64,000 bases of DNA from a phage, in the sequence record PZ296772.1; one strand, 5' to 3'. How positions within the stretch are numbered: the stretch's first letter is position 1; each line of letters begins with the position of its first letter. The translations under genes were made by a program, and so were the position numbers. Below are positions 1 through 46,407 of the stretch, in pieces. The notes beneath the pieces are model-generated. The model saw only the letters and a list, made by a program, of their open reading frames with translations, searched no databases and had not been told where the DNA came from.

Positions 1-2
1 AT

Positions 3-839
3 ATGCCGTCTGAAATCTATACTAATCTGCCGCGAGCACTTATTAAAGCGTGTAAAGGTTATGGAAAATCAATGGCTGACGGAATATTCAGCGCGCTGAA
101 TAAACTTAACGTTCTGTCGATGATTAACTCTAACAACATCCTGCGTAATCTAGGACGTACTGATTTGTTCGGTCGTGAACAGTGTAAAATGCCTTTGAAA
201 TGGATTGTTGCCCATCTTAACGAGAACCAAACACGTTTTATGGCTGTAACAGCACGTTTACAAATGGGCCTAGATCGTCAGATGAACTTTAAAACTCATC
301 CACGTTATTCAGGTTCAACAAACTTTTATAAATGTGAGCTTCAAAAGGTTGGTGGCAAAACTGTCTTAGTAGTTCGTGTAACGTTTGAAGGACGTCGTCA
401 AGGATATTTTGACATAATCGGCTCTGGACTTAAACATTGTGGATTTATCGACGAAGTTGATATCAAGCGAGACGGCATTGGATACCGTATTGGGTATGTT
501 TGTACTCTTAAAGAAGAGATTTCAGGACCAGCACCAGGACTAAAAGACGTTAGATATAAAGACGAGCTCGTTGAAGAAATAAAAGAAGTTGAATATGATA
601 TCAACCAAGAAGATGCTCTTAAAGACCTTATTGATGAACTGAACCAAGACGTTATTCCGGTTCAGAAATTTGAATCAAAACATGCTGAGCAAATCAAATA
701 CTTTGAAGCTTTGATTAACGAACTTAATGTAACTATTCAACAGACTGATGATGAAATCTCACGATTAGCGGGCTTAAACGGTAAAAATAAAACAGAACGA
801 GCTAATCTTATTCAAGTAGTAAAACTTCTTAAGGAATGA
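3..839 (+). CDS. hypothetical early protein with C-terminal coiled-coil; true N-terminus may lie outside window
   Basis: 278-aa ORF from window edge; heptad-rich acidic C-terminus; no recognisable catalytic motif. Confidence 0.45.
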   Translation: MPSEIYTNLPRALIKACKGYGKSMADGIFSALNKLNVLSMINSNNILRNLGRTDLFGREQCKMPLKWIVAHLNENQTRFMAVTARLQMGLDRQMNFKTHPRYSGSTNFYKCELQKVGGKTVLVVRVTFEGRRQGYFDIIGSGLKHCGFIDEVDIKRDGIGYRIGYVCTLKEEISGPAPGLKDVRYKDELVEEIKEVEYDINQEDALKDLIDELNQDVIPVQKFESKHAEQIKYFEALINELNVTIQQTDDEISRLAGLNGKNKTERANLIQVVKLLKE

Positions 840-868
840 TGTACAACCAAGGATGGTTGGAGTATAAT
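840..868 (+). promoter_or_regulatory. sigma70-type early promoter
   Basis: tgtaca -35, 17-bp spacer caaccaaggatggttgg, tataat -10; 27 bp upstream of ORF 895. Confidence 0.6.
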
Positions 869-894
869 AAATTTTTCAACATGAGGAATATAAA

Positions 895-1854
895 ATGGCT
901 TTTATTACACGTAGAGAACTTATCAAAGAATTTACCTCGAACGCATATACTCCAGGACCTAATCCTATCCGTATGCCTGTAAAGACTCCTGAAGAGATTG
1001 AGGAAATCTGTTCATATTATGGGATTAATTCTCGTATGTTTACTCAATTTGAATGCGTTACTAACACACCCGTTAAAGAGTTCATTAAAAATGGTGAGTT
1101 CAGCCGTTTATTAGCCAAACAGAAACTTCGTAATTTTTGTATCGGCGGCTGCGGACAATATTTTGCTAAACAGTTCCGAAATAACCTTAACAATCTGATG
1201 GCCATTGCTTCTCGTATTCGTCCTCAAGCAATTAACATGAAACATTTGAAATATACTTACGATAAGTTAGAAATCATGGTTATCAGTGAGAATGAGTTCA
1301 CTCTTACATATAAACCTAAGAATGATAACGTTGCTCGTGTATTCCACCAAGCGCTAGAAGTGTTAGGCGATAATATCCATGAGATTAAAGCAATTTATTC
1401 TCGTGAGCTTAATATTATCGACCCTATCAAGAATAAGGGCCATATCGCTATCCAGGCTCGTGTATCTATTGGTAAAAAGGTTCCTGCGCCATGGTGGCAC
1501 AAAGACTCTGAATACTATCAAAATCTTAAAAAGGAAAATGCATTGTTTGAAGGCAATATTACAGCAACACCAGTCGGTAATGCAGAGGTTCTAGGCGCAT
1601 ATTCTCCAGCACAATCTGGTATGTTTAAAGGTTTGCCAAATGTGTGCAAACTGTCGGCAGTAAAACTAAATGTTTCTAATGACCTTCTTCCGGCAGAAGA
1701 TTATCATTACAACCAAATCAAGGCTACTGTAGACCAACTGTCCGTTGAACTTGACAAAGCACAAGCTAAGCTTCGTGATGCTCAAAGTGTTGTAACGAAT
1801 CTCCAGTTGCAGTATTCTAAACTTTTTAATGCAATGAATGCATTAAAATCATAA
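895..1854 (+). CDS. hypothetical early protein with C-terminal coiled-coil
   Basis: 319-aa ORF, own promoter and RBS, C-terminal heptad repeats. Confidence 0.55.
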   Translation: MAFITRRELIKEFTSNAYTPGPNPIRMPVKTPEEIEEICSYYGINSRMFTQFECVTNTPVKEFIKNGEFSRLLAKQKLRNFCIGGCGQYFAKQFRNNLNNLMAIASRIRPQAINMKHLKYTYDKLEIMVISENEFTLTYKPKNDNVARVFHQALEVLGDNIHEIKAIYSRELNIIDPIKNKGHIAIQARVSIGKKVPAPWWHKDSEYYQNLKKENALFEGNITATPVGNAEVLGAYSPAQSGMFKGLPNVCKLSAVKLNVSNDLLPAEDYHYNQIKATVDQLSVELDKAQAKLRDAQSVVTNLQLQYSKLFNAMNALKS

Positions 1855-1858
1855 AACG

Positions 1859-1888
1859 GTTTACAACCAAGGATGGTTGGAATATAAT
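1859..1888 (+). promoter_or_regulatory. sigma70-type early promoter
   Basis: gtttaca -35, same spacer ccaaggatggttgg, tataat -10. Confidence 0.6.
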
Positions 1889-1916
1889 GAATCTATCTTA
1901 ACGAGAGGAAAATATT

Positions 1917-2867
1917 ATGACACGTTCACATTACATTGAATACTTTGCCGGGCTTATCGCTAACGTTCATGCCCAGCGCGCTTCTGGTGCACTAGGATTT
2001 GATGTTCCACACCGAGATGTAGTAAGTGGTATTCTTCGTGATTTTGGTACATACACAGGTCAAGAAAATCATATCTGTAAAGATACTCAAAATGCATATT
2101 CTCATTCATTAGGGACACTGCTTCAATGGTTCAAACGTTCTCGTTTATTATCTTCTACTGTAGCTCGTGATAACATCAAAAACTTTATGAAGCCGAGCTT
2201 TATTAAATCTGTGACATCTAAAACCGATTTGGTTGAATTCACTATTGTTAATGATGTTAAAAAGACTCATTTGGCTGATTGGTTATCTACCATTCCTGAA
2301 ACTAAATTTGCTGATAAATTTGCTTGTGAATTCAATAACCAAGTGAATATGCTTTTTAAACATTCTCGTAAATTATTCACGGGCGGTGATGGTCGTACAA
2401 ATAAAGTTCATGTTAAAGATTGGGTTACTGCAGTATTCAAACCAACCGGTAATGGTAACGCATCATTATCAATTGATATCCAGGTTCCTTATTACTACTC
2501 ACGTAATCTCGGTACCATGAAAGCTGAAGAAATTAATAAGCATAACAAAACCGTTCGTTCGTTGTCTTATAAACTTATTACATTGTTAGAGACTATGGAT
2601 GTTGTTGAAACGTTCGACGAGTCCGAAGATAACGGTTCAATGTTATACAGTTCTCGCACCCGAATTAAGCTGAGGAACCCTAACGAGTATAAACTTAAGA
2701 CTATTAAAGAACCTAAAGTAGAAAAAGTTGACAACTTGAGCGAAGAACGTGAGTACCTCAAATCTCGTCTGAAAGAAGTCGAAGCCCAGATTAAAGAACA
2801 GACTAAATCGTTAAAAGCTCTGAATGCGAAAGCGGATGGTTTACGAAATGCCATTGAGGTGTTATAA
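1917..2867 (+). CDS. hypothetical early protein with C-terminal coiled-coil
   Basis: 316-aa ORF, RBS gagagg upstream, coiled-coil C-terminus. Confidence 0.55.
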   Translation: MTRSHYIEYFAGLIANVHAQRASGALGFDVPHRDVVSGILRDFGTYTGQENHICKDTQNAYSHSLGTLLQWFKRSRLLSSTVARDNIKNFMKPSFIKSVTSKTDLVEFTIVNDVKKTHLADWLSTIPETKFADKFACEFNNQVNMLFKHSRKLFTGGDGRTNKVHVKDWVTAVFKPTGNGNASLSIDIQVPYYYSRNLGTMKAEEINKHNKTVRSLSYKLITLLETMDVVETFDESEDNGSMLYSSRTRIKLRNPNEYKLKTIKEPKVEKVDNLSEEREYLKSRLKEVEAQIKEQTKSLKALNAKADGLRNAIEVL

Positions 2868-3172
2868 TGAATCTACGTCTTCTAGAGGATATTGATATGA
2901 GCACTAATCATGGCTTAGTTAAGTTTATTGATGATAGTTCAAAGATTGAATTTGTTCAGCGAGATAAAATCCTCGGTGAAGAAGAGTTCGTTCCTCCGGC
3001 ATGGAACGAAATAATGAAAATGGTTGAACGACGTGAAAATGCTGCCAAATCGGCAGCAAAACATCCATGCCCAGAATGTGGAACTATCCAGGTCCAACTG
3101 GTTAACTGGACCACTGATAACTTGAAATTGAAATGCCGTAAATGCTTCCACAAATTTGAGAGAACAATATAA
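2867..3172 (+). CDS. small zinc-ribbon protein
   Basis: 101 aa; CPECG...CRKC four-Cys ribbon at C-terminus; start overlaps upstream stop. Confidence 0.5.
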   Translation: MNLRLLEDIDMSTNHGLVKFIDDSSKIEFVQRDKILGEEEFVPPAWNEIMKMVERRENAAKSAAKHPCPECGTIQVQLVNWTTDNLKLKCRKCFHKFERTI

Positions 3173-3585
3173 TGAGATATAGCCTTCGTTGTTTTATCGC
3201 AGCTTTAGTTTTTGCCATTATTCCATTCATTTGGAACAGCCAGAATACTTACATGGAAACTAAAGTAATTCCTGTGGAGGTAGTGGAATTAATCTCAGGC
3301 CAATCTACAGGAAAATATTCTAAATTAGAATTTATTGCAGTCTATAAAGATGAGCAAGGACGAGTTTTTGACAGGCATGTATCACCATCGTTTTATACGC
3401 TTCTGAATAAAGGTGATACGATAGCTATAGAAATTCGTGAGATGGATATTCAGCAAAATACTCGAGATAACATCATTTGGTTCTTTGGTACAGTGCTGAT
3501 GTTTTCTATCGGTATCACAGGTTTTATTACATGTATTGTATTTGGCATTGCATATTTAATCGATGAAAGGAAAAATAATGTTTAA
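3172..3585 (+). CDS. hypothetical membrane protein
   Basis: 137 aa; hydrophobic N-terminal and C-terminal segments. Confidence 0.5.
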   Translation: MRYSLRCFIAALVFAIIPFIWNSQNTYMETKVIPVEVVELISGQSTGKYSKLEFIAVYKDEQGRVFDRHVSPSFYTLLNKGDTIAIEIREMDIQQNTRDNIIWFFGTVLMFSIGITGFITCIVFGIAYLIDERKNNV

Positions 3586-3841
3586 AGTGTACGGGTATGA
3601 CTCTACTATTCATAAATGCATTTATTGTGATAATGCGAAACGATTGCTGACTGTTAAGAAACAGCCATTCGAATTCATTAATGTTATGCCAGAAAAAGGT
3701 GTGTTCGATGATGAGAAAATTGCTGAGCTTCTGGTTAAGCTTGGACGTGAATCACAAGTCGGATTGACTATGCCACAGATATTTGCTCCTGATGGAAGTC
3801 ATATTGGTGGATTTGACCAACTGCGAGAATATTTTAAATGA
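3578..3841 (+). CDS. nrdC: thioredoxin/glutaredoxin NrdC
   Basis: MFKVYGYDS...KCIYCDNAK CxxC motif; near-identical to T4 NrdC from memory; RBS aagga before ATG 3578. Confidence 0.9.
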   Translation: MFKVYGYDSTIHKCIYCDNAKRLLTVKKQPFEFINVMPEKGVFDDEKIAELLVKLGRESQVGLTMPQIFAPDGSHIGGFDQLREYFK

Positions 3842-4134
3842 GTATTGATTTAACTTTCCCGGGCTCTTATGACCAGGGTAAATTAGAAGCTTTGTTATAT
3901 CAAGAAATGTGTTCTCGTGCTAAGAACGATATCCAATATGCTATCGATAATCCATGGGGTGAATTTCGTATATTAATGGGTAATCGAATCATAGGTGTTC
4001 AATGGCGATTCGTTGGTCTTGAACCTGAAGACTACGAAGAAAACGAGCACGGTGACTGGATTCCTGTTGGTGAATATCACTGGGAATACGGTGGTCCTGA
4101 TTTCGAAGTTTCCTGTGCCTGGGTAGAACAATAA
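3838..4134 (+). CDS. hypothetical protein
   Basis: 98-aa ORF translationally coupled to nrdC. Confidence 0.5.
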   Translation: MSIDLTFPGSYDQGKLEALLYQEMCSRAKNDIQYAIDNPWGEFRILMGNRIIGVQWRFVGLEPEDYEENEHGDWIPVGEYHWEYGGPDFEVSCAWVEQ

Positions 4135-4152
4135 ACTGCGAGAATATTTTAA

Positions 4153-4509
4153 ATGACATATTCATTAAATCTTAAAGATTTCCAAGATGCATACGAAGTT
4201 TGTGTATCAGAGCTTGGTCCTGAATCTCCATCTATTATTGAAGTTTTAAATGTGCTCCCTTCATCATTAGCGTATGAAGCCAAATCATGGGGATGGAATG
4301 ATACTATTGTTCGTGATGACTTGTATGTCCTGATGAATGACATGATGGTTAAAAAGGCAGAACCGGTTGCACCAATGGTTACCATTACCGTTGAAGAATA
4401 TAATCGCCTGCAAGCCATTGAAGAGCTTCTGTGGAACATTGAATGTGACCTGCCGTCAGGGCTAGAATCCTGGATTGATTATGAAGAGCTCAATAAACTC
4501 CGGGGTTAA
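4153..4509 (+). CDS. hypothetical protein
   Basis: 118-aa acidic ORF. Confidence 0.5.
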   Translation: MTYSLNLKDFQDAYEVCVSELGPESPSIIEVLNVLPSSLAYEAKSWGWNDTIVRDDLYVLMNDMMVKKAEPVAPMVTITVEEYNRLQAIEELLWNIECDLPSGLESWIDYEELNKLRG

Positions 4510-4637
4510 ACCGTGGTATTCTGCTCGATGGGAGACTGTCGAGCCAGACGTCGAAACGGTTTACAACGACGAAGAACCATGTTATGATGAACCTTCAATA
4601 AATGAATTAATTGATATGGAAATGGGAAGAGATTATT

Positions 4638-4808
4638 ATGCAAGTTAAATTATTGTACCGTTTATTAAAAAACGGCAAGCATGATTGGTATTTGCTTATT
4701 AAAACCGATCCGAATTTTTTCTCTGGACAACCATTTACAGTTCGTCCTACTAAACGTCAGCTTCGCAAAGCTAAACGTTCTCATCGTAACTTTTATAGAG
4801 AATATTGA
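4638..4808 (+). CDS. small basic protein with VRPTKRQ C-terminal motif
   Basis: 56 aa from ATG 4638 with ggaaga RBS; basic tail TVRPTKRQLRKAKR. Confidence 0.4.
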   Translation: MQVKLLYRLLKNGKHDWYLLIKTDPNFFSGQPFTVRPTKRQLRKAKRSHRNFYREY

Positions 4809-4809
4809 T

Positions 4810-5223
4810 ATGAATATTTCTGAAACTCGCGGTAAATGGTTCAAGATTGTTAAAGAAGACGAAGAACTACAAGACAAGTTTCCTGAATTAAAGAAAGGAA
4901 CAATCCTCAAGGTAATTGGTACTACTACCGAAGATGGTTATGGCGACCATGGCATTATCGAAGTGATGTTGAACACAGGTGAGAAACTTTGCATCTATGA
5001 CCGTGATACTTCTCTTTGGTGCTTCTGGGAATCCCATTCAATAGATGAACTCGAAGAAATTGACCAAGTAGTTTGTGATGGTGGACTTGGCGAATTCGAA
5101 GGTGAACGTATTTCTTATGCTTTAGCTAAATTAGCTGGTCAAGAAAATAATGACGGTTATGAAGGTAATCTGATGCAAGCCGCAGCGGAATACATTGAAT
5201 ATTTAGAAAGACGTTTAAGTTAA
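4810..5223 (+). CDS. hypothetical acidic protein
   Basis: 137 aa from ATG 4810 overlapping upstream stop. Confidence 0.5.
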   Translation: MNISETRGKWFKIVKEDEELQDKFPELKKGTILKVIGTTTEDGYGDHGIIEVMLNTGEKLCIYDRDTSLWCFWESHSIDELEEIDQVVCDGGLGEFEGERISYALAKLAGQENNDGYEGNLMQAAAEYIEYLERRLS

Positions 5224-5228
5224 TAAAT

Positions 5229-5253
5229 ACCCTTATCTATTTAAGGTAAGGGT
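5229..5253 (+). promoter_or_regulatory. stem-loop sequestering the gene 49 ribosome-binding site
   Basis: accctta / taagggt 7-bp inverted repeat ending 6 nt before ATG 5259; second arm contains the aaggg SD. Confidence 0.5.
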
Positions 5254-5258
5254 TTATC

Positions 5259-5732
5259 ATGTTATTATCAGGCGCAAAATATAAAGAAGAAAAACAAAAA
5301 TTTTATGATGCACAGAATGGTAAGTGTCCTATTTGCCACCGTGAATTAGACCCTGATGTTCAAGGTAACCATCTTGACCACGACCATGAATTAAACGGGC
5401 CAAAAGCTGGTAAGGTTCGTGGTTTACTATGTAACCTGTGCAATGCAGCAGAAGGTCAAATGAAGCATAAGTTCAACCGTTCTGGTCTTAAAGGTCAAAA
5501 CGTTGATTACCTCGAATGGCTTGAAGCTCTTCTTGCTTATTTGAAACAAGATTATTCTGATAATAATATCCATCCTAATTTTGTTCCAGACAAAACTAAA
5601 GAGTTCTCAAGACTAGGTAAAGAGGAAATGATGACTGAGATGCTTCAAAGAGGATTTGAATATAATGAATCTGATACTAAAACACAATTAATAGCTTCAT
5701 TCAAAAAGCAGCTTAGAAAGAGTTTAAAATGA
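5259..5732 (+). CDS. 49: endonuclease VII (Holliday junction resolvase)
   Basis: 157 aa; CPICH...CNLC zinc cluster and HLDHDH motif matching T4 gp49 from memory. Confidence 0.9.
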   Translation: MLLSGAKYKEEKQKFYDAQNGKCPICHRELDPDVQGNHLDHDHELNGPKAGKVRGLLCNLCNAAEGQMKHKFNRSGLKGQNVDYLEWLEALLAYLKQDYSDNNIHPNFVPDKTKEFSRLGKEEMMTEMLQRGFEYNESDTKTQLIASFKKQLRKSLK

Positions 5733-6271
5733 CGATTGAAAAAGAAATTGAAGGACTAATTCATAAAACTAATAAAGACCTTTTAAACGAGAATGCTAAT
5801 AAAGATTCTCGTGTTTTTCCAACTCAACGGGACCTTATGGCTGGTATTGTGTCTAAACACATTGCCAAAAATATGGTCCCGTCTTTTATTATGAAAGCGC
5901 ATGAAAGCGGAATTATCCATTTCCACGATATTGATTATTCCCCTGCTCTTCCATTTACTAATTGCTGTTTAGTAGATTTAAAAGGAATGCTTGAGAACGG
6001 ATTTAAGCTCGGTAATGCACAGATTGAAACTCCTAAATCAATCGGCGTTGCTACTGCAATTATGGCGCAAATTACTGCACAGGTTGCTTCCCACCAATAT
6101 GGCGGAACGACTTTTGCGAATGTAGATAAAGTACTTTCTCCTTATGTTAAACGCACCTATGCAAAACATATTGAGGATGCAGAAAAATGGCAAATCGCTG
6201 ATGCGTTGAATTATGCTCAATCTAAAACAGAAAAAGATGTATATGACGCGTTTCAGGCGTATGAGTTAATT
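5729..6271 (+). CDS. nrdD: anaerobic ribonucleotide reductase NrdD, exon 1 (3' boundary approximate)
   Basis: 181-aa N-terminal part; reading frame resumes about 1 kb downstream in another frame. Confidence 0.8.
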
Positions 6272-6477
6272 TAATTCAGGCTCATGTAAAACCGGTCTAA
6301 ACGGGGAACCTCTCTAGTAGACAATCCCGTGCTAAATGTTCTTTTGAACTAAATGCCTAACGACTAACCGTGATGAATGTAGCGGTGTAGAATAGAAGCT
6401 AATGCTATTCGAAACGGCCGGCATCGAAAGATGAAGATATAGTCTAATCTGCATGGCGACATGCAGCAGTCATCTTG

Positions 6478-6485
6478 TATAAATA
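6478..6485 (+). promoter_or_regulatory. T4-type late promoter TATAAATA inside intron
   Basis: exact tataaata 30 bp upstream of endonuclease ORF, preceded by ctgcat/atgcag hairpin. Confidence 0.55.
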
Positions 6486-6514
6486 AGATTATCTTATGAA
6501 TACGAGGTGAAACA

Positions 6515-7285
6515 ATGAAATGGATAAAAAGACGTTGTACTAAAATAAAAGATAAAGACGCATTTACATACTTAGTTAAGTTTTCTAATGGCGACATTTA
6601 TATCGGTTATAAAAAATTTAGAACAATTAAAAACAAGCCCACAAACTGGAAAACTTACACAACGTCATCTAAGTATATAAATGAACGCTTAAAAACTGAT
6701 ACACCTACTAAATGGATAATTTTAAAAACATTTGATAGTTATAAAGATGCATTAAAACATGAAGAAGAGGTCATACGTAAATATTTTTATAGCAAAAAAT
6801 GTTTAAATAAATCCATAGGCGGTAAAAAGTTTTATAAGCATCCGGATACTGAAGAACATATTCAAAAATTAAGAGATGCTCATAAGGGTAAAGTGTTATC
6901 CGAATCTCATAAAAACAATATAAAATCTTCTGTGGCTGAATATTATGCTAAAAACAGAAGATCTAAGGAACATGTGCAAAATAATATCAATAGTCGAAAA
7001 AGTAAAAAACAAGTATCGATAAAGCTTAAAAATAAAACTTTTAGAAGTTTTAAAAAAGCAGCGGAATATTTAAATTGCACTGAAAGTGAAGTCGAAACTC
7101 ATCCTCTTGTTTTGAGTATTAAGACTACTATTCATAAAGTTCCTGAATATGTGGTTGTTGACGGTATTAAGTATACGTCTTATATAGAAGCAGCTAAAGC
7201 GCTAAATTTTCATCCTAGCACTATAAAAGAACGTTGCATATCTATGGACTATCCAAATTTTGTTGTTTCATATAAACGGGCATGA
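6515..7285 (+). CDS. GIY-YIG homing endonuclease, I-TevII-like
   Basis: 256 aa; N-terminal FTYLVKF...DIYIGYKK GIY-YIG motif; lysine-rich DNA-binding C-terminus; lies wholly inside the intron. Confidence 0.8.
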   Translation: MKWIKRRCTKIKDKDAFTYLVKFSNGDIYIGYKKFRTIKNKPTNWKTYTTSSKYINERLKTDTPTKWIILKTFDSYKDALKHEEEVIRKYFYSKKCLNKSIGGKKFYKHPDTEEHIQKLRDAHKGKVLSESHKNNIKSSVAEYYAKNRRSKEHVQNNINSRKSKKQVSIKLKNKTFRSFKKAAEYLNCTESEVETHPLVLSIKTTIHKVPEYVVVDGIKYTSYIEAAKALNFHPSTIKERCISMDYPNFVVSYKRA

Positions 7286-7292
7286 ATTTGCG

Positions 7293-8591
7293 ACTCATGC
7301 TGAATATAATGATGAAGTAAATACACTTTTCAGCTCTAATGGTCAAACGCCTTTTGTAACAATTACATTTGGTACGGGAACTGACTGGACTGAACGAATG
7401 ATTCAGAAAGCAATTCTGAAAAATCGTATTAAAGGTCTTGGTCGTGATGGGATAACTCCTATTTTCCCTAAGCTTGTTATGTTCGTTGAAGAAGGTGTTA
7501 ATCTTTATAAAGATGATCCGAACTATGATATTAAGCAGCTTGCTTTAGAGTGTGCAAGCAAAAGGATGTATCCTGATATTATTTCAGCTAAGAACAATAA
7601 AGCTATCACTGGTTCATCTGTTCCTGTTTCTCCAATGGGTTGCCGTAGTTTCTTGAGCGTATGGAAAGATTCGACTGGTAATGAAATTCTTGATGGACGT
7701 AATAATCTTGGTGTTGTAACACTGAATCTTCCTCGCATCGCGTTAGATTCTTATATTGGAACACAGTTCAATGAACAGAAATTTATCGAATTGTTCAATG
7801 AACGAATGGATTTATGTTTTGAAGCTTTGATGTGTAGAATTAGTTCCTTAAAAGGAATTAAAGCTACTGTTGCTCCTATTCTTTACCAAGAAGGTGCATT
7901 CGGGGTTCGTCTTAAACCCGATGACGATATAATTGAGTTATTTAAAAACGGTAGAAGTTCAGTGTCTTTAGGATACATTGGTATTCACGAATTGAATATT
8001 CTTATCGGTCGTGATATTGGACAAGAAATTTTAACTAAAATGAATGCTCATCTTAAACAGTGGACTGAAAGAACTGGGTTTGCTTTTAGTTTGTATTCTA
8101 CTCCTGCTGAAAACCTTTGCTATCGCTTCTGTAAACTTGATACAGAAAAATATGGAAGTGTAAAGGATGTTACTGATAAAGGTTGGTACACTAACAGTTT
8201 CCATGTTTCAGTAGAAGAAAATGTTACTCCGTTTGAAAAGATTTCTCGTGAAGCGCCATATCATTTCATTGCGACAGGTGGTCACATTTCTTATGTTGAA
8301 CTTCCTGATATGAAAAATAACTTAAAAGGTCTTGAGGCTGTATGGGATTATGCCGCACAACATTTAGATTATTTTGGTGTTAATATGCCAGTAGATAAAT
8401 GTTTTACATGTGGAAGTACCCATGAAATGACTCCTACTGAAAACGGATTTGTTTGTTCTATTTGCGGAGAAACTGATCCTAAAAAGATGAATACCATAAG
8501 AAGAACATGTGGTTATTTGGGAAATCCGAACGAACGCGGATTTAATCTCGGTAAAAATAAAGAAATCATGCATAGGGTTAAACACCAATGA
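7293..8591 (+). CDS. nrdD: anaerobic ribonucleotide reductase NrdD, exon 2 (5' boundary approximate)
   Basis: C-terminal CxxC...CxxC zinc site and glycyl-radical motif RRTCGYLG. Confidence 0.85.
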   Translation, partial: THAEYNDEVNTLFSSNGQTPFVTITFGTGTDWTERMIQKAILKNRIKGLGRDGITPIFPKLVMFVEEGVNLYKDDPNYDIKQLALECASKRMYPDIISAKNNKAITGSSVPVSPMGCRSFLSVWKDSTGNEILDGRNNLGVVTLNLPRIALDSYIGTQFNEQKFIELFNERMDLCFEALMCRISSLKGIKATVAPILYQEGAFGVRLKPDDDIIELFKNGRSSVSLGYIGIHELNILIGRDIGQEILTKMNAHLKQWTERTGFAFSLYSTPAENLCYRFCKLDTEKYGSVKDVTDKGWYTNSFHVSVEENVTPFEKISREAPYHFIATGGHISYVELPDMKNNLKGLEAVWDYAAQHLDYFGVNMPVDKCFTCGSTHEMTPTENGFVCSICGETDPKKMNTIRRTCGYLGNPNERGFNLGKNKEIMHRVKHQ

Positions 8592-9058
8592 ATTATGATA
8601 GATTTTATCCCTGTGATTTTGTGAATGGCCCTGGATGCAGGGTCGTTCTTTTCGTCACAGGTTGTTTGCATAAATGCGAAGGGTGTTATAATAAATCAAC
8701 ATGGAATGCTAGAAATGGTATTCCATTCACTGGTGAAACACTGGAACAATTAATTGAATGTTTGAATAATGATTATACAGAAGGATTAACTATAACTGGG
8801 GGAGACCCTCTTTATCCTGATAACAGAGATGTGATTCATTGCATTGTTCAAACAGTAAAAAATCTTTATCCCAGTAAAAGCATTTGGTTGTGGACAGGAT
8901 ATAAGTTTGAAGATATTAAACAACTAGAAATGCTTAAATATGTTGATGTTATTATTGATGGGAAGTATGAGAAAAATCTTCCGACCAAAAAGCTGTGGCG
9001 AGGATCAGATAATCAGCGACTTTGGTCAAATACCGATGGGGTGTGGAAACATGATTAA
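8588..9058 (+). CDS. nrdG: anaerobic RNR activating enzyme NrdG (radical SAM)
   Basis: 156 aa; CLHKCEGC radical-SAM cysteine triad; start overlaps nrdD stop. Confidence 0.9.
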   Translation: MNYDRFYPCDFVNGPGCRVVLFVTGCLHKCEGCYNKSTWNARNGIPFTGETLEQLIECLNNDYTEGLTITGGDPLYPDNRDVIHCIVQTVKNLYPSKSIWLWTGYKFEDIKQLEMLKYVDVIIDGKYEKNLPTKKLWRGSDNQRLWSNTDGVWKHD

Positions 9059-44906: not shown

Positions 44907-44936
44907 GTTTACAACCAAGGACGGTTGGAGTATAAT
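44907..44936 (+). promoter_or_regulatory. sigma70-type early promoter (conserved-spacer family)
   Basis: gtttaca, spacer ccaaggacggttgg, tataat. Confidence 0.6.
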
Positions 44937-44966: not shown

Positions 44967-45461
44967 ATGAATATCAATACTACGTCTACTTACATCCTGA
45001 AAGACGAAAAACAAATCAACTGGTACGGTGCTTCAGTGCGAGCTTATGAAAAGTTTTGTGAAATTTTAGGTGCCACTCAAGGTAATAGTTTCACTATTGT
45101 TAACTTCATTAAACAAGTTGAAGGCCCTTGGTTATTCTTAGAAATTAAAAATTCATACGGTACAATTTCTACTACTGCCATCCCAAGCACCGACTTTGAA
45201 CTGTTGATTGAAGAAGCACCTGTTAAAGATGGTCTCCACTTTGATATGGATATCGTTTGTATGTACGGTACTCTGATTAAGCCTATTGAGCCTACTGATT
45301 TATTGTGTAAATATGTTTCAATTCGACGCCCATTCGATGGTCCAGTAAATGGATGGGTAACTGACCAGTGGATTGAAGATGGGGTTGAACTTCTGAACGT
45401 TGTTCATGCCGGTGATTTTAGTGTGGTTCCACGTAGTGCAGTAGTTAATATTCTAAATTAA
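44967..45461 (+). CDS. paralogous family protein 1 (conserved C-terminal DQWxEDG domain)
   Basis: 164 aa; C-terminus GWVTDQWIEDGVELLNVVHAGDFSVVP. Confidence 0.55.
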   Translation: MNINTTSTYILKDEKQINWYGASVRAYEKFCEILGATQGNSFTIVNFIKQVEGPWLFLEIKNSYGTISTTAIPSTDFELLIEEAPVKDGLHFDMDIVCMYGTLIKPIEPTDLLCKYVSIRRPFDGPVNGWVTDQWIEDGVELLNVVHAGDFSVVPRSAVVNILN

Positions 45462-45463
45462 TG

Positions 45464-45493
45464 TTGTACATCCAAGGATGGATGGAGTATAAT
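45464..45493 (+). promoter_or_regulatory. sigma70-type early promoter (conserved-spacer family)
   Basis: ttgtaca, spacer tccaaggatggatgg, tataat. Confidence 0.6.
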
Positions 45494-45522: not shown

Positions 45523-45978
45523 ATGATTACTATTGGTGAAATTAAGCGTGTATCAACTGCATCCCGGTCTAAAGCCGCAGGTCGTCTGGTTGAAGTGGTA
45601 GGACTTCGCACAAATGGCATGGGACGCATTAAAGAAGTTAAAGTTCGAATCATTCCTAGTTTTGGACGTCAGGATACTCAGCACGCTTACGTAAGTCCTA
45701 AATTCTTGGAAACTCCTGTGAGCGCTCATTTTGCTTCTACTGAACCTAATGCACAGTTCAAATGGGCCTTGTGTAAAGGTGTTGAATTCCAGACTGATAA
45801 AGAATTTGACTTCATCGATGAATACGGTTATCCAAGCAAAACTGATACTATGTGTGGCTTCATTAGTGACCAATGGGTTGAAGATGGTGAAAAGTTATAC
45901 AATATCGTATTCTTAGGTGACTTCCGAGTTGTTAAAGAATCTGAAATCACTCGTTATGTGTCTCCTCGTAAAGCTTAA
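45523..45978 (+). CDS. paralogous family protein 2 (conserved C-terminal DQWxEDG domain)
   Basis: 151 aa; C-terminus GFISDQWVEDGEKLYNIVFLGDFRVV. Confidence 0.55.
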   Translation: MITIGEIKRVSTASRSKAAGRLVEVVGLRTNGMGRIKEVKVRIIPSFGRQDTQHAYVSPKFLETPVSAHFASTEPNAQFKWALCKGVEFQTDKEFDFIDEYGYPSKTDTMCGFISDQWVEDGEKLYNIVFLGDFRVVKESEITRYVSPRKA

Positions 45979-45987
45979 GGAATTATT

Positions 45988-46407
45988 ATGAATATTGTAA
46001 ATCTCTCTACAGGTGATTACGTATATGTATCTGTTGCTTCTCGCTCTAAAGTTGCCGGGAAGTTGGTTGAAGTTCTTTCTGTGAGTGATCCGGTTTTTGG
46101 TCGTAACCAAGTTAAAGTTCGTGACGCCGATGGTAACATTGGTTACGTTAAAAGCCAATTTATTGAACCAGAAGAAAAAGCGTTCAAATGGAAACTGGGC
46201 AGATCAGTTTTAGTTGTAAAAGACTACGAGTTCACCATTGCCGCTGCGACAGATGGAACACCGTGGACAACGAATCAAGTTGCTGGTTTTATTTCGGACC
46301 AATGGGTAGAAGATGGTGTTAAGCTTTATAACATTGTTTTCGCTGGGCAGTTCATGGTAGTTCCTGAGTTCCAAATCAAAAAATATTGTCCAGCATCTTT
46401 TGCATAA
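45988..46407 (+). CDS. paralogous family protein 3 (conserved C-terminal DQWxEDG domain)
   Basis: 139 aa; C-terminus GFISDQWVEDGVKLYNIVFAGQFMVVP; N-terminus resembles protein 2. Confidence 0.55.
   Translation: MNIVNLSTGDYVYVSVASRSKVAGKLVEVLSVSDPVFGRNQVKVRDADGNIGYVKSQFIEPEEKAFKWKLGRSVLVVKDYEFTIAAATDGTPWTTNQVAGFISDQWVEDGVKLYNIVFAGQFMVVPEFQIKKYCPASFA

Follow-up and report, generated by a model that had tools for sequence, protein, structure and literature searches.

The subject of this study is a group of three adjacent genes at the start of a 64,000-nucleotide (nt) stretch of phage DNA (sequence record PZ296772.1), which as a whole is called the window below, together with the proteins these genes encode and the promoters between them. 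Three open reading frames (ORFs) are found on the + strand at positions 3-839 (ORF1, 278 amino acids, aa), 895-1854 (ORF2, 319 aa) and 1917-2867 (ORF3, 316 aa), as listed in the initial annotation of the window. Over the first 4.2 kb the DNA is 96-97.5% identical to RB69-like phages, and the best match is Shf125875, a Shigella phage of the genus Mosigvirus (97% identical in the region of the three genes): by this measure the source of the window is an RB69-like Mosigvirus. In the record of this phage the counterparts of the three ORFs carry the names 'similar to RB69 nrdC.6', 'nrdC.5' and 'nrdC.3'. Judged by homology, ORF1, ORF2 and ORF3 are the T-even genes nrdC.6, nrdC.5 and nrdC.3, that is, genes already catalogued and not a novel block.

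The initial annotation stated that T4 has no such trio. This is not the case: T4 carries an array in the same place upstream of nrdC, consisting of nrdC.6 (275 aa), nrdC.5 (340 aa), nrdC.4 (333 aa) and nrdC.3 (308 aa). In Gaprivervirus VR7 and one Dhakavirus the order is nrdC.6, a small ORF, nrdC.5 and nrdC.4. The trio is therefore the Mosigvirus form of a conserved array with variable copy number; in contrast to T4, Mosigvirus lacks nrdC.4. On the 3' side the array is followed by a nrdC.2 homolog (zinc-ribbon-like), a membrane protein, NrdC (3563-3841), gp49 endonuclease VII and nrdD.

ORF1 is a fragment of its gene. It is 97% identical to the Shf125875 protein, whose gene is 996 nt long (331 aa) and starts 159 nt ahead of the ATG that matches window position 3, so this ATG is codon 54, and the window begins inside the gene. 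In agreement with a cut gene, ORF1 matches phrog_2257 (E=5e-103) at profile positions 55-303 only, and a full-length NrdC.6 homolog of 331 aa (P0054) covers positions 1-303. The earlier description of three proteins of about 300 aa thus fits ORF2 and ORF3 but not ORF1. Further, since the start of nrdC.6 lies outside the window, its own promoter is not visible there, and the idea that each ORF stands behind a promoter of its own could not be upheld for ORF1.

ORF1 is the ortholog of T4 NrdC.6, a hypothetical protein of the same families (phrog_2257, PF26899). In the Mosigvirus protein the linker is long and acidic and the C-terminal helix is intact, whereas the T4 reference loses the helix by a 1-nt deletion. 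At the 3' end of nrdC.6 the T4 reference (NC_000866) reads GAGCTG-ATATT where other Tequatroviruses read GAGCTGAATATT, and the resulting frameshift truncates the helix. The 70 nt annotated as 'intergenic' before T4 nrdC.5 still encode, in another frame, the lost end of the helix (...SGLSSKAKSEREKLIKIVDLLKS).

For ORF2 the match to the Pfam model PF23882 is unambiguous (E=1e-118; score 396.6 bits, cut-off 30; all 307 profile positions covered), and T4 NrdC.5 scores at a similar level on the same model (E=5e-126, 420.6 bits). The gene lies between nrdC.6 and nrdC.4/.3 and 5' of nrdC. ORF2 thus resembles T4 NrdC.5 in Pfam model, genomic position, architecture and C-terminal helix, but the two proteins are only 25-28% identical in pairwise alignment. 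Unlike nrdC.5 of Tequatrovirus, which directly abuts nrdC.6, the Mosigvirus gene has a promoter of its own, described below.

ORF3 matches phrog_1435 over the full length of the profile (E=3e-102) and is 56-58% identical to T4 NrdC.3, of which it is the ortholog. T4 NrdC.4 falls in phrog_1435 too and aligns collinearly with NrdC.3 along the whole protein; both T4 proteins are hypothetical members of phrog_1435 and PF26897. The features of the locus are collected in Table 1.

Table 1. Features of the nrdC.6-nrdC.5-nrdC.3 array in window coordinates; heptad z values come from a heuristic score of our own making, and AF2 stands for AlphaFold2.
Feature	Position	Strand	Details
nrdC.6, 3' part	1..839	+	codons 54-331 of a 331-aa gene; phrog_2257 / PF26899 (precomputed)
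NrdC.6 C-terminal heptad helix, with acidic linker before it	675..836	+	heptad z=2.8, fragment residues 225-257
PeSL-type early promoter, first	840..868	+	-35 TGTACA 840-845, -10 TATAAT 863-868; 10/12 matches, spacing 17
Stem-loop in first promoter spacer	844-859		CAACCA-AGGA-TGGTTG
nrdC.5 homolog, 319 aa	895..1854	+	DUF7235 (PF23882) / phrog_2351, both full length
NrdC.5 C-terminal heptad helix	1690..1851	+	residues 266-319; heptad z=4.3; AF2 helix 266-318
PeSL-type early promoter, second	1860..1888	+	-35 TTTACA 1860-1865, -10 TATAAT 1883-1888; 11/12 matches, spacing 17
Stem-loop in second promoter spacer	1864-1879		same as in first promoter
nrdC.3 homolog, 316 aa	1917..2867	+	phrog_1435 / PF26897 (precomputed); paralog of T4 NrdC.4
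NrdC.3 C-terminal heptad helix	2739..2864	+	residues 275-316; heptad z=3.0; AF2 helix 275-315

The four families of the array turn out to be related to each other. A simple BLAST comparison already links T4 NrdC.4 to ORF3 (E=7e-5). When family alignments built locally were compared with HHalign, NrdC.3 and NrdC.4 matched with a probability of 97.8% (E=8e-13, 228 columns), the merged NrdC.3/4 profile matched NrdC.5 at 87.6% (E=3.5e-6, 162 columns, the globular part), and the merged NrdC.3/4/5 profile matched NrdC.6 at 91.8% (E=7.6e-7, 225 columns, collinear). About 25 controls, consisting of reversed sequences and the unrelated NrdC.10 and NrdC.11, all gave E-values of at least 0.06. The alignment of the three proteins by profile, which had been proposed as a check, thus came out in favor of a relationship.

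Further support comes from a bridge profile made of homologs from Kanagawavirus and Mosugukvirus. These proteins are matched by the hidden Markov models of NrdC.5 and NrdC.6 alike, and in HHalign the bridge aligns with NrdC.5 (97.7%, E=1.3e-12, 229 columns), with NrdC.6 (97.9%, E=4.9e-13, 203 columns) and, over a shorter region, with NrdC.3/4 (73.4%, E=3e-5, 99 columns). The direct comparisons of NrdC.5 or NrdC.3 with NrdC.6 are weak (E=0.004-0.15). Motif blocks are common to the families in a fixed order: K.L.K.G..SR..A...L.NFG, then F....R.N....LALGARL..G.....NFKT, then PVE, which opens the C-terminal helix, and finally QR.KL..A...LK, which closes it. A helix-turn-helix-like reading of the first block was dropped, as no family of this kind matched at E<=0.1. 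By profile comparison, then, NrdC.3, NrdC.4, NrdC.5 and NrdC.6 are one superfamily, and the trio in the window consists of diverged tandem paralogs that are related over their whole length. The new point here is the merger of four families, each catalogued on its own and of unknown function, into one tandemly expanded superfamily.

The predicted architecture of each protein starts with a fast-evolving helical N-region, followed by a small beta-beta-beta-alpha-beta-beta core, a hypervariable linker and, at the C-terminus, a conserved amphipathic helix of about 45-55 residues. AlphaFold2 was run with alignments of 19 (ORF2) and 30 (ORF3) close homologs. The models have low predicted local distance difference test scores (pLDDT 41.7 for ORF2 and 49.6 for ORF3) and were used for secondary structure alone; in both, the long C-terminal helix is the best-scoring segment. 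The order of elements is also the same: helical N-region, long helix, three strands, helix, two strands, disordered linker and C-terminal helix. The predicted C-terminal helices span 41-53 residues and are free of proline.

Scored for heptad periodicity, every member has its best segment at the C-terminus; this score is a home-made heuristic and not a validated coiled-coil predictor, and it gives z=2.8 for ORF1, 4.3 for ORF2 and 3.0 for ORF3, compared with 1.9 and 1.4 for the unrelated neighbors NrdC.10 and NrdC.11. The scores of the three ORFs are reached by at most 3 of 300 shuffles. Most likely the amphipathic helix forms a coiled coil. The charge of the tails differs: the last 80-100 residues of ORF1 are acidic (net charge -6 to -9), and ORF2 and ORF3 are balanced in charge over their final 40-100 residues (-1 to +4).

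The initial annotation had described the proteins as ending in acidic heptad repeats and as sharing a C-terminal module. The heptad helix is indeed present in all three, but the acidity is a property of ORF1 only; the common helix is homologous and the most conserved region, but the relationship extends over the entire proteins and not over the tail only. Of the structure prediction that had been suggested as a check, the long C-terminal helix was recovered in ORF2 and ORF3, at the low overall confidence given above.

In line with the early impression that no catalytic motifs are present, searches of Pfam, NCBIfam and PADLOC linked ORF1-3 to no enzyme family. Four residues, M1, R107, K116 and L317, are invariant among NrdC.5, NrdC.6 and the bridging proteins; as this set contains no acidic residue, His, Cys or Ser, it does not look catalytic. 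In the PDB, ORF1-3 had no significant match by sequence or by profile, the weak matches of the tails being to the coiled coils of Smc, Lpp, APC and GCN4. Foldseek searches with the ORF3 model returned only its own family in BFVD and nothing at E<=0.001 in the PDB. Homology to known structural or housekeeping proteins, which would have spoken against an accessory role, was absent from Pfam, NCBIfam and PDB; only families of unknown function were hit.

Next to the genes stand the promoters. The near-identical early promoters noted earlier are of the sigma70 type; they lie in the intergenic regions before ORF2 and ORF3 and have a 27-nt motif in common, TACAACCAAGGATGGTTGGArTATAAT. Four copies of this motif are present in the window (842, 1862, 44910 and 45467), and shuffling the window never reproduced it. 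Between the -35 and -10 elements it holds a stem of 6 bp with the loop AGGA; the two distant copies of the stem-loop are at 44912-44927 and 45469-45484, and the copy at 45467 retains the stem via a compensatory double change. In T4, Mosigvirus, Gaprivervirus and Dhakavirus, where copies of the cassette are found 5' of variable array members, the core CA-AGGA-TG is invariant and the outer stem covaries: 91.7% of the cells are paired, covariation scores 0.589 where shuffled alignments give 0.122 (0/500 reach the observed value) and slid controls at most 0.141, and compensatory changes are seen in 4/6 stem pairs. No U-tract follows the stem-loop, and the folding of the intergenic RNA is not unusually stable (z +0.4 to -1.7), so that the element does not resemble a canonical terminator.

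Promoter-early stem-loop (PeSL) elements of T4-type phages combine a strong early promoter with a stem-loop that mostly lies between -35 and -10; they are enriched in hyperplastic regions and have been proposed to mediate modular shuffling (Arbiol et al. 2010, PMC2839356; Comeau et al. 2014, PMC4122927). The cassettes in the window are alike in their layout, an upstream stop codon followed by promoter and stem-loop and then a Shine-Dalgarno sequence, and like the published ones they are repeated in a hyperplastic region and flank variable genes. They differ from those of RB49 and phi1, whose stems are built of G-runs and C-runs, by the invariant CA-AGGA-TG core and the covarying outer stem. 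The window promoters thus fit the description of PeSL cassettes, with promoter, attenuator or recombination activity as predicted functions, and the structured, covarying stem-loop is a new element of the array promoters. The description of the block as accessory and early-expressed stands.

The same stem-loop is also found 5' of nrdC.6, outside the window, and 5' of T4 nrdC.7, there together with CGCTTTA, 12-13 nt and TATAAT, a context that appears to resemble a middle promoter with a MotA box. A third promoter-like site at 2840-2868 (TTTACG-17-TATAAT, upstream TG) was rejected as probably fortuitous; it overlaps the stop of nrdC.3 and the start of nrdC.2. Elsewhere in the window a second tandem paralog trio lies downstream of dda and dexA (44967-45461, 45523-45978 and 45988-46407). 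These genes are MotB-like (phrog_2333 / phrog_1671) and have the C-terminal motif DQWVEDG..LYN.VF.G.F.VV in common; the first two each stand behind the same PeSL promoter and stem-loop.

The superfamily has a narrow distribution. When 1.84 billion representative proteins were searched exhaustively with a profile mixed from three families, only 12 clusters came back, one of them a spurious repeat protein. Word-indexed homolog searches found close relatives only, and a scan of viral contigs added little diversity. One cluster (P0064) led to single-copy homologs directly upstream of nrdC.2 in Kanagawavirus (CIP9, PEi20) and Mosugukvirus (PM2). By these searches the superfamily is restricted to T4-like phages (Tevenvirinae), with one copy in Kanagawavirus and Mosugukvirus and three to four in T-even-like phages. 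Just 5' of the single-copy member, Mosugukvirus and Kanagawavirus also encode a conserved protein of 256-261 aa (4542-5327 in L014, 4238-5008 in L015 and 4679-5449 in L016), for which the NrdC.3/.4/.5/.6 profiles gave no match.

The array evolves fast but under constraint. Identity to T4 is 28% for NrdC.5, 34% for NrdC.6 and 58% for NrdC.3, compared with 78% for NrdC.10, 80% for NrdC.11, 83% for NrdC.8, 91% for NrdC and 90% for gp49 in the flanks. Within Mosigvirus (the window against phage moha) the ratio of nonsynonymous to synonymous substitution rates (dN/dS) reaches 0.15-0.19 in the trio, and most neighbors lie at 0.05-0.11; the proteins of the trio are therefore functional and under purifying selection. 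Conservation is uneven along the proteins: in every ortholog pair the C-terminal helix is the most conserved part and the linker the least (10-26%). For NrdC.5 the helix is 44% identical to T4 and the rest of the protein 19-24%; for NrdC.3 the values are 74% and 52-57%; and for NrdC.6, compared with Tequatrovirus, they are 59% and 10-34%.

Synonymous divergence (dS) between the window and moha is raised for nrdC.5 and nrdC.6 (0.46-0.49), which suggests allele exchange. Some Tequatrovirus contigs (L005-L007) carry a nrdC.3 allele 75% identical to that of Mosigvirus, against 55-58% for the T4 allele, a pattern that points to exchange of array alleles between genera.

For one member of the superfamily a function has been reported. 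A T4 clone with a deletion in the nrdC region fails to infect the strain ECOR17, and disruption of dsr1 in the host restores infection; plasmid-borne dsr1 protects MG1655, and T4 nrdC.5 supplied in trans restores infection of Dsr1 cells by the deletion mutant (Srikant, Guegler and Laub, eLife 2022; PMC9391042). T4 is still viable with deletions that span the nrdC.5 region, and the anti-Dsr1 test covers T4 nrdC.5 only, with no mechanism given and the neighboring genes outside it (PMC9391042). Our literature search found no paper on the function of NrdC.3, NrdC.4 or NrdC.6, on the mechanism of NrdC.5, or on later anti-Dsr1 work. The anti-defence part of the initial guess is therefore partly supported, by the published role of the T4 gene; for the genes of the window such a role would follow by homology.

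A functional analogue comes from another phage group. The protein DSAD1 of an SPbeta-family phage (Garb et al. 2022) reportedly inhibits DSR2 by direct binding; with it, too, a phage counters a defence NADase that has a SIR2 domain. DSAD1 differs from NrdC.5 in phage group and in target, DSR2 and not Dsr1, and is likened to NrdC.5 by function alone.

Taken together, the trio is part of a tandem-paralog array in a hyperplastic region of Mosigvirus, and we regard it as probable, though by no means settled, that the array acts early and that its products are non-enzymatic binders that neutralise host immune proteins. Homology, architecture and the evolutionary pattern are the reasons for this counter-defence model. 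The genes would be transcribed early from their own sigma70-type promoters in PeSL cassettes, whose repeated sequence probably also offers the homology by which genes are shuffled, duplicated or lost. Soon after infection the proteins would bind and neutralise host immune proteins without enzymatic action, the nrdC.5 family acting on the SIR2-type NADase Dsr1. The variable N-domain would set target specificity, and the conserved C-terminal helix would serve oligomerisation or a common partner. In this model Mosigvirus NrdC.5 would still target Dsr1, to judge from its similarity to the T4 protein, and its binding would be direct, with an oligomerising C-terminal helix; NrdC.3 and NrdC.6 would be counter-defence proteins as well.

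Several points weigh against this reading. NrdC.5 of the window shows no more than 25-28% identity to the T4 protein used in the published experiment; its specificity for Dsr1 may therefore be lost, and the anti-defence experiment is limited to NrdC.5, with none for NrdC.3, NrdC.4 or NrdC.6. The direct profile match between NrdC.5 and NrdC.6 is weak (E=0.004-0.02), their link running via the bridges and the merged profile. The coiled coil is deduced from a home-made heptad score and a predicted helix, and the AlphaFold2 models are of low confidence (pLDDT 42 and 50), agreeing in the order of secondary structure only. Finally, dN/dS is below 1, with no sign of positive selection over whole genes.

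On a rival reading only the NrdC.5 lineage is counter-defence, while NrdC.3 and NrdC.6 took other roles in host takeover (acting for example on host metabolism, transcription or the envelope) and the helix is inherited architecture. The paralogs are less than 20% identical in the globular part, the Dsr1 test was made with nrdC.5 only, and the slower change of NrdC.3 (58% identity to T4, against 28-34% for NrdC.5 and NrdC.6) hints at a different constraint. However, tandem expansion, variation in copy number, allele exchange between genera and a dispensable hyperplastic location are typical of host-range and counter-defence genes, and the alternative functions of NrdC.3 and NrdC.6 have no direct support; we hold this division of roles to be rather unlikely. 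A bolder version of the counter-defence model is a modular platform, in which the quickly diversifying N-domain of each paralog would hit a different immune protein (Dsr1 in the case of NrdC.5), the conserved coiled coils would join like or unlike paralogs into a multi-specific inhibitor complex and the PeSL stem-loop with its invariant AGGA loop would be the site where new specificities are duplicated, lost or passed between genera. This goes further than we would readily follow, and we consider it improbable as a whole.

The hyperplastic location with its repeated PeSL elements, the dispensability of the genes in the laboratory and the frameshifted nrdC.6 of the T4 reference, with its truncated C-terminus, could mean that the ORFs are largely functionless ORFans, kept by PeSL cassettes that duplicate and move them. 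But purifying selection (dN/dS 0.15-0.19), the fact that four genera or more have kept the genes, along with a conserved C-terminal helix and conserved central motifs, and the demonstrated phenotype of one member make this very unlikely. Even more doubtful is a structural or assembly role that makes use of the coiled coil (for example as scaffold, fibre or neck). The long C-terminal helix would suit it, and the weak Foldseek matches include tail-terminator and neck proteins; these matches, however, have template modelling (TM) scores of at most 0.3 and come from a low-confidence model, the promoters are sigma70 early and not late promoters, and the genes are dispensable for virion production and belong to the early nrdC-mobD region rather than to a structural module. 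We give least credence of all to accessory proteins related to thioredoxin or to nucleotide metabolism. Many GenBank records do say 'thioredoxin', and the genes adjoin nrdC, nrdD and nrdG, but ORF1-3 contain no thioredoxin or glutaredoxin domain, while the true NrdC matches Pfam Glutaredoxin. Further, no CxxC is conserved: the sole Cys pair of ORF2 (CIGGC) is a CxxxC and is replaced in close homologs. The label stems from the gene names, nrdC.N.

One superfamily member with demonstrated anti-Dsr1 activity makes NrdC.3, NrdC.4, NrdC.6 and the divergent NrdC.5 of Mosigvirus candidate inhibitors of Dsr1 variants or of other defences. It also suggests a domain logic, a variable recognition domain combined with a conserved helix. 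In addition, the assignments made here correct the widespread misannotation of the array genes as 'thioredoxin'.

Outside the array, nrdD of the window is split at the position of the T4 nrdD intron, into an exon-1-like ORF at 5729-6274 and an exon-2-like ORF at 7398-8591. Inside the interruption (window 5729-8591) lies a homing-endonuclease ORF of 256 aa (6515-7285, phrog_314). At the gathering threshold Rfam reported no group I intron in the nrdD region, and no family at all over window positions 1-9000. In the closest relative, Shf125875, nrdD is intact (605 aa) and free of any interruption.

Database labels in this region vary in quality. In GenBank many homologs of nrdC.2-nrdC.11 are labelled 'thioredoxin' (for example in moha, MN850590), none of them with a thioredoxin domain. 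In ESCO10 (OM386655) the product names appear to be shifted relative to the genes; for example, the nrdC.5 homolog is named 'endonuclease II', and the nrdC.4 homolog bears the name 'aerobic NDP reductase small subunit'.

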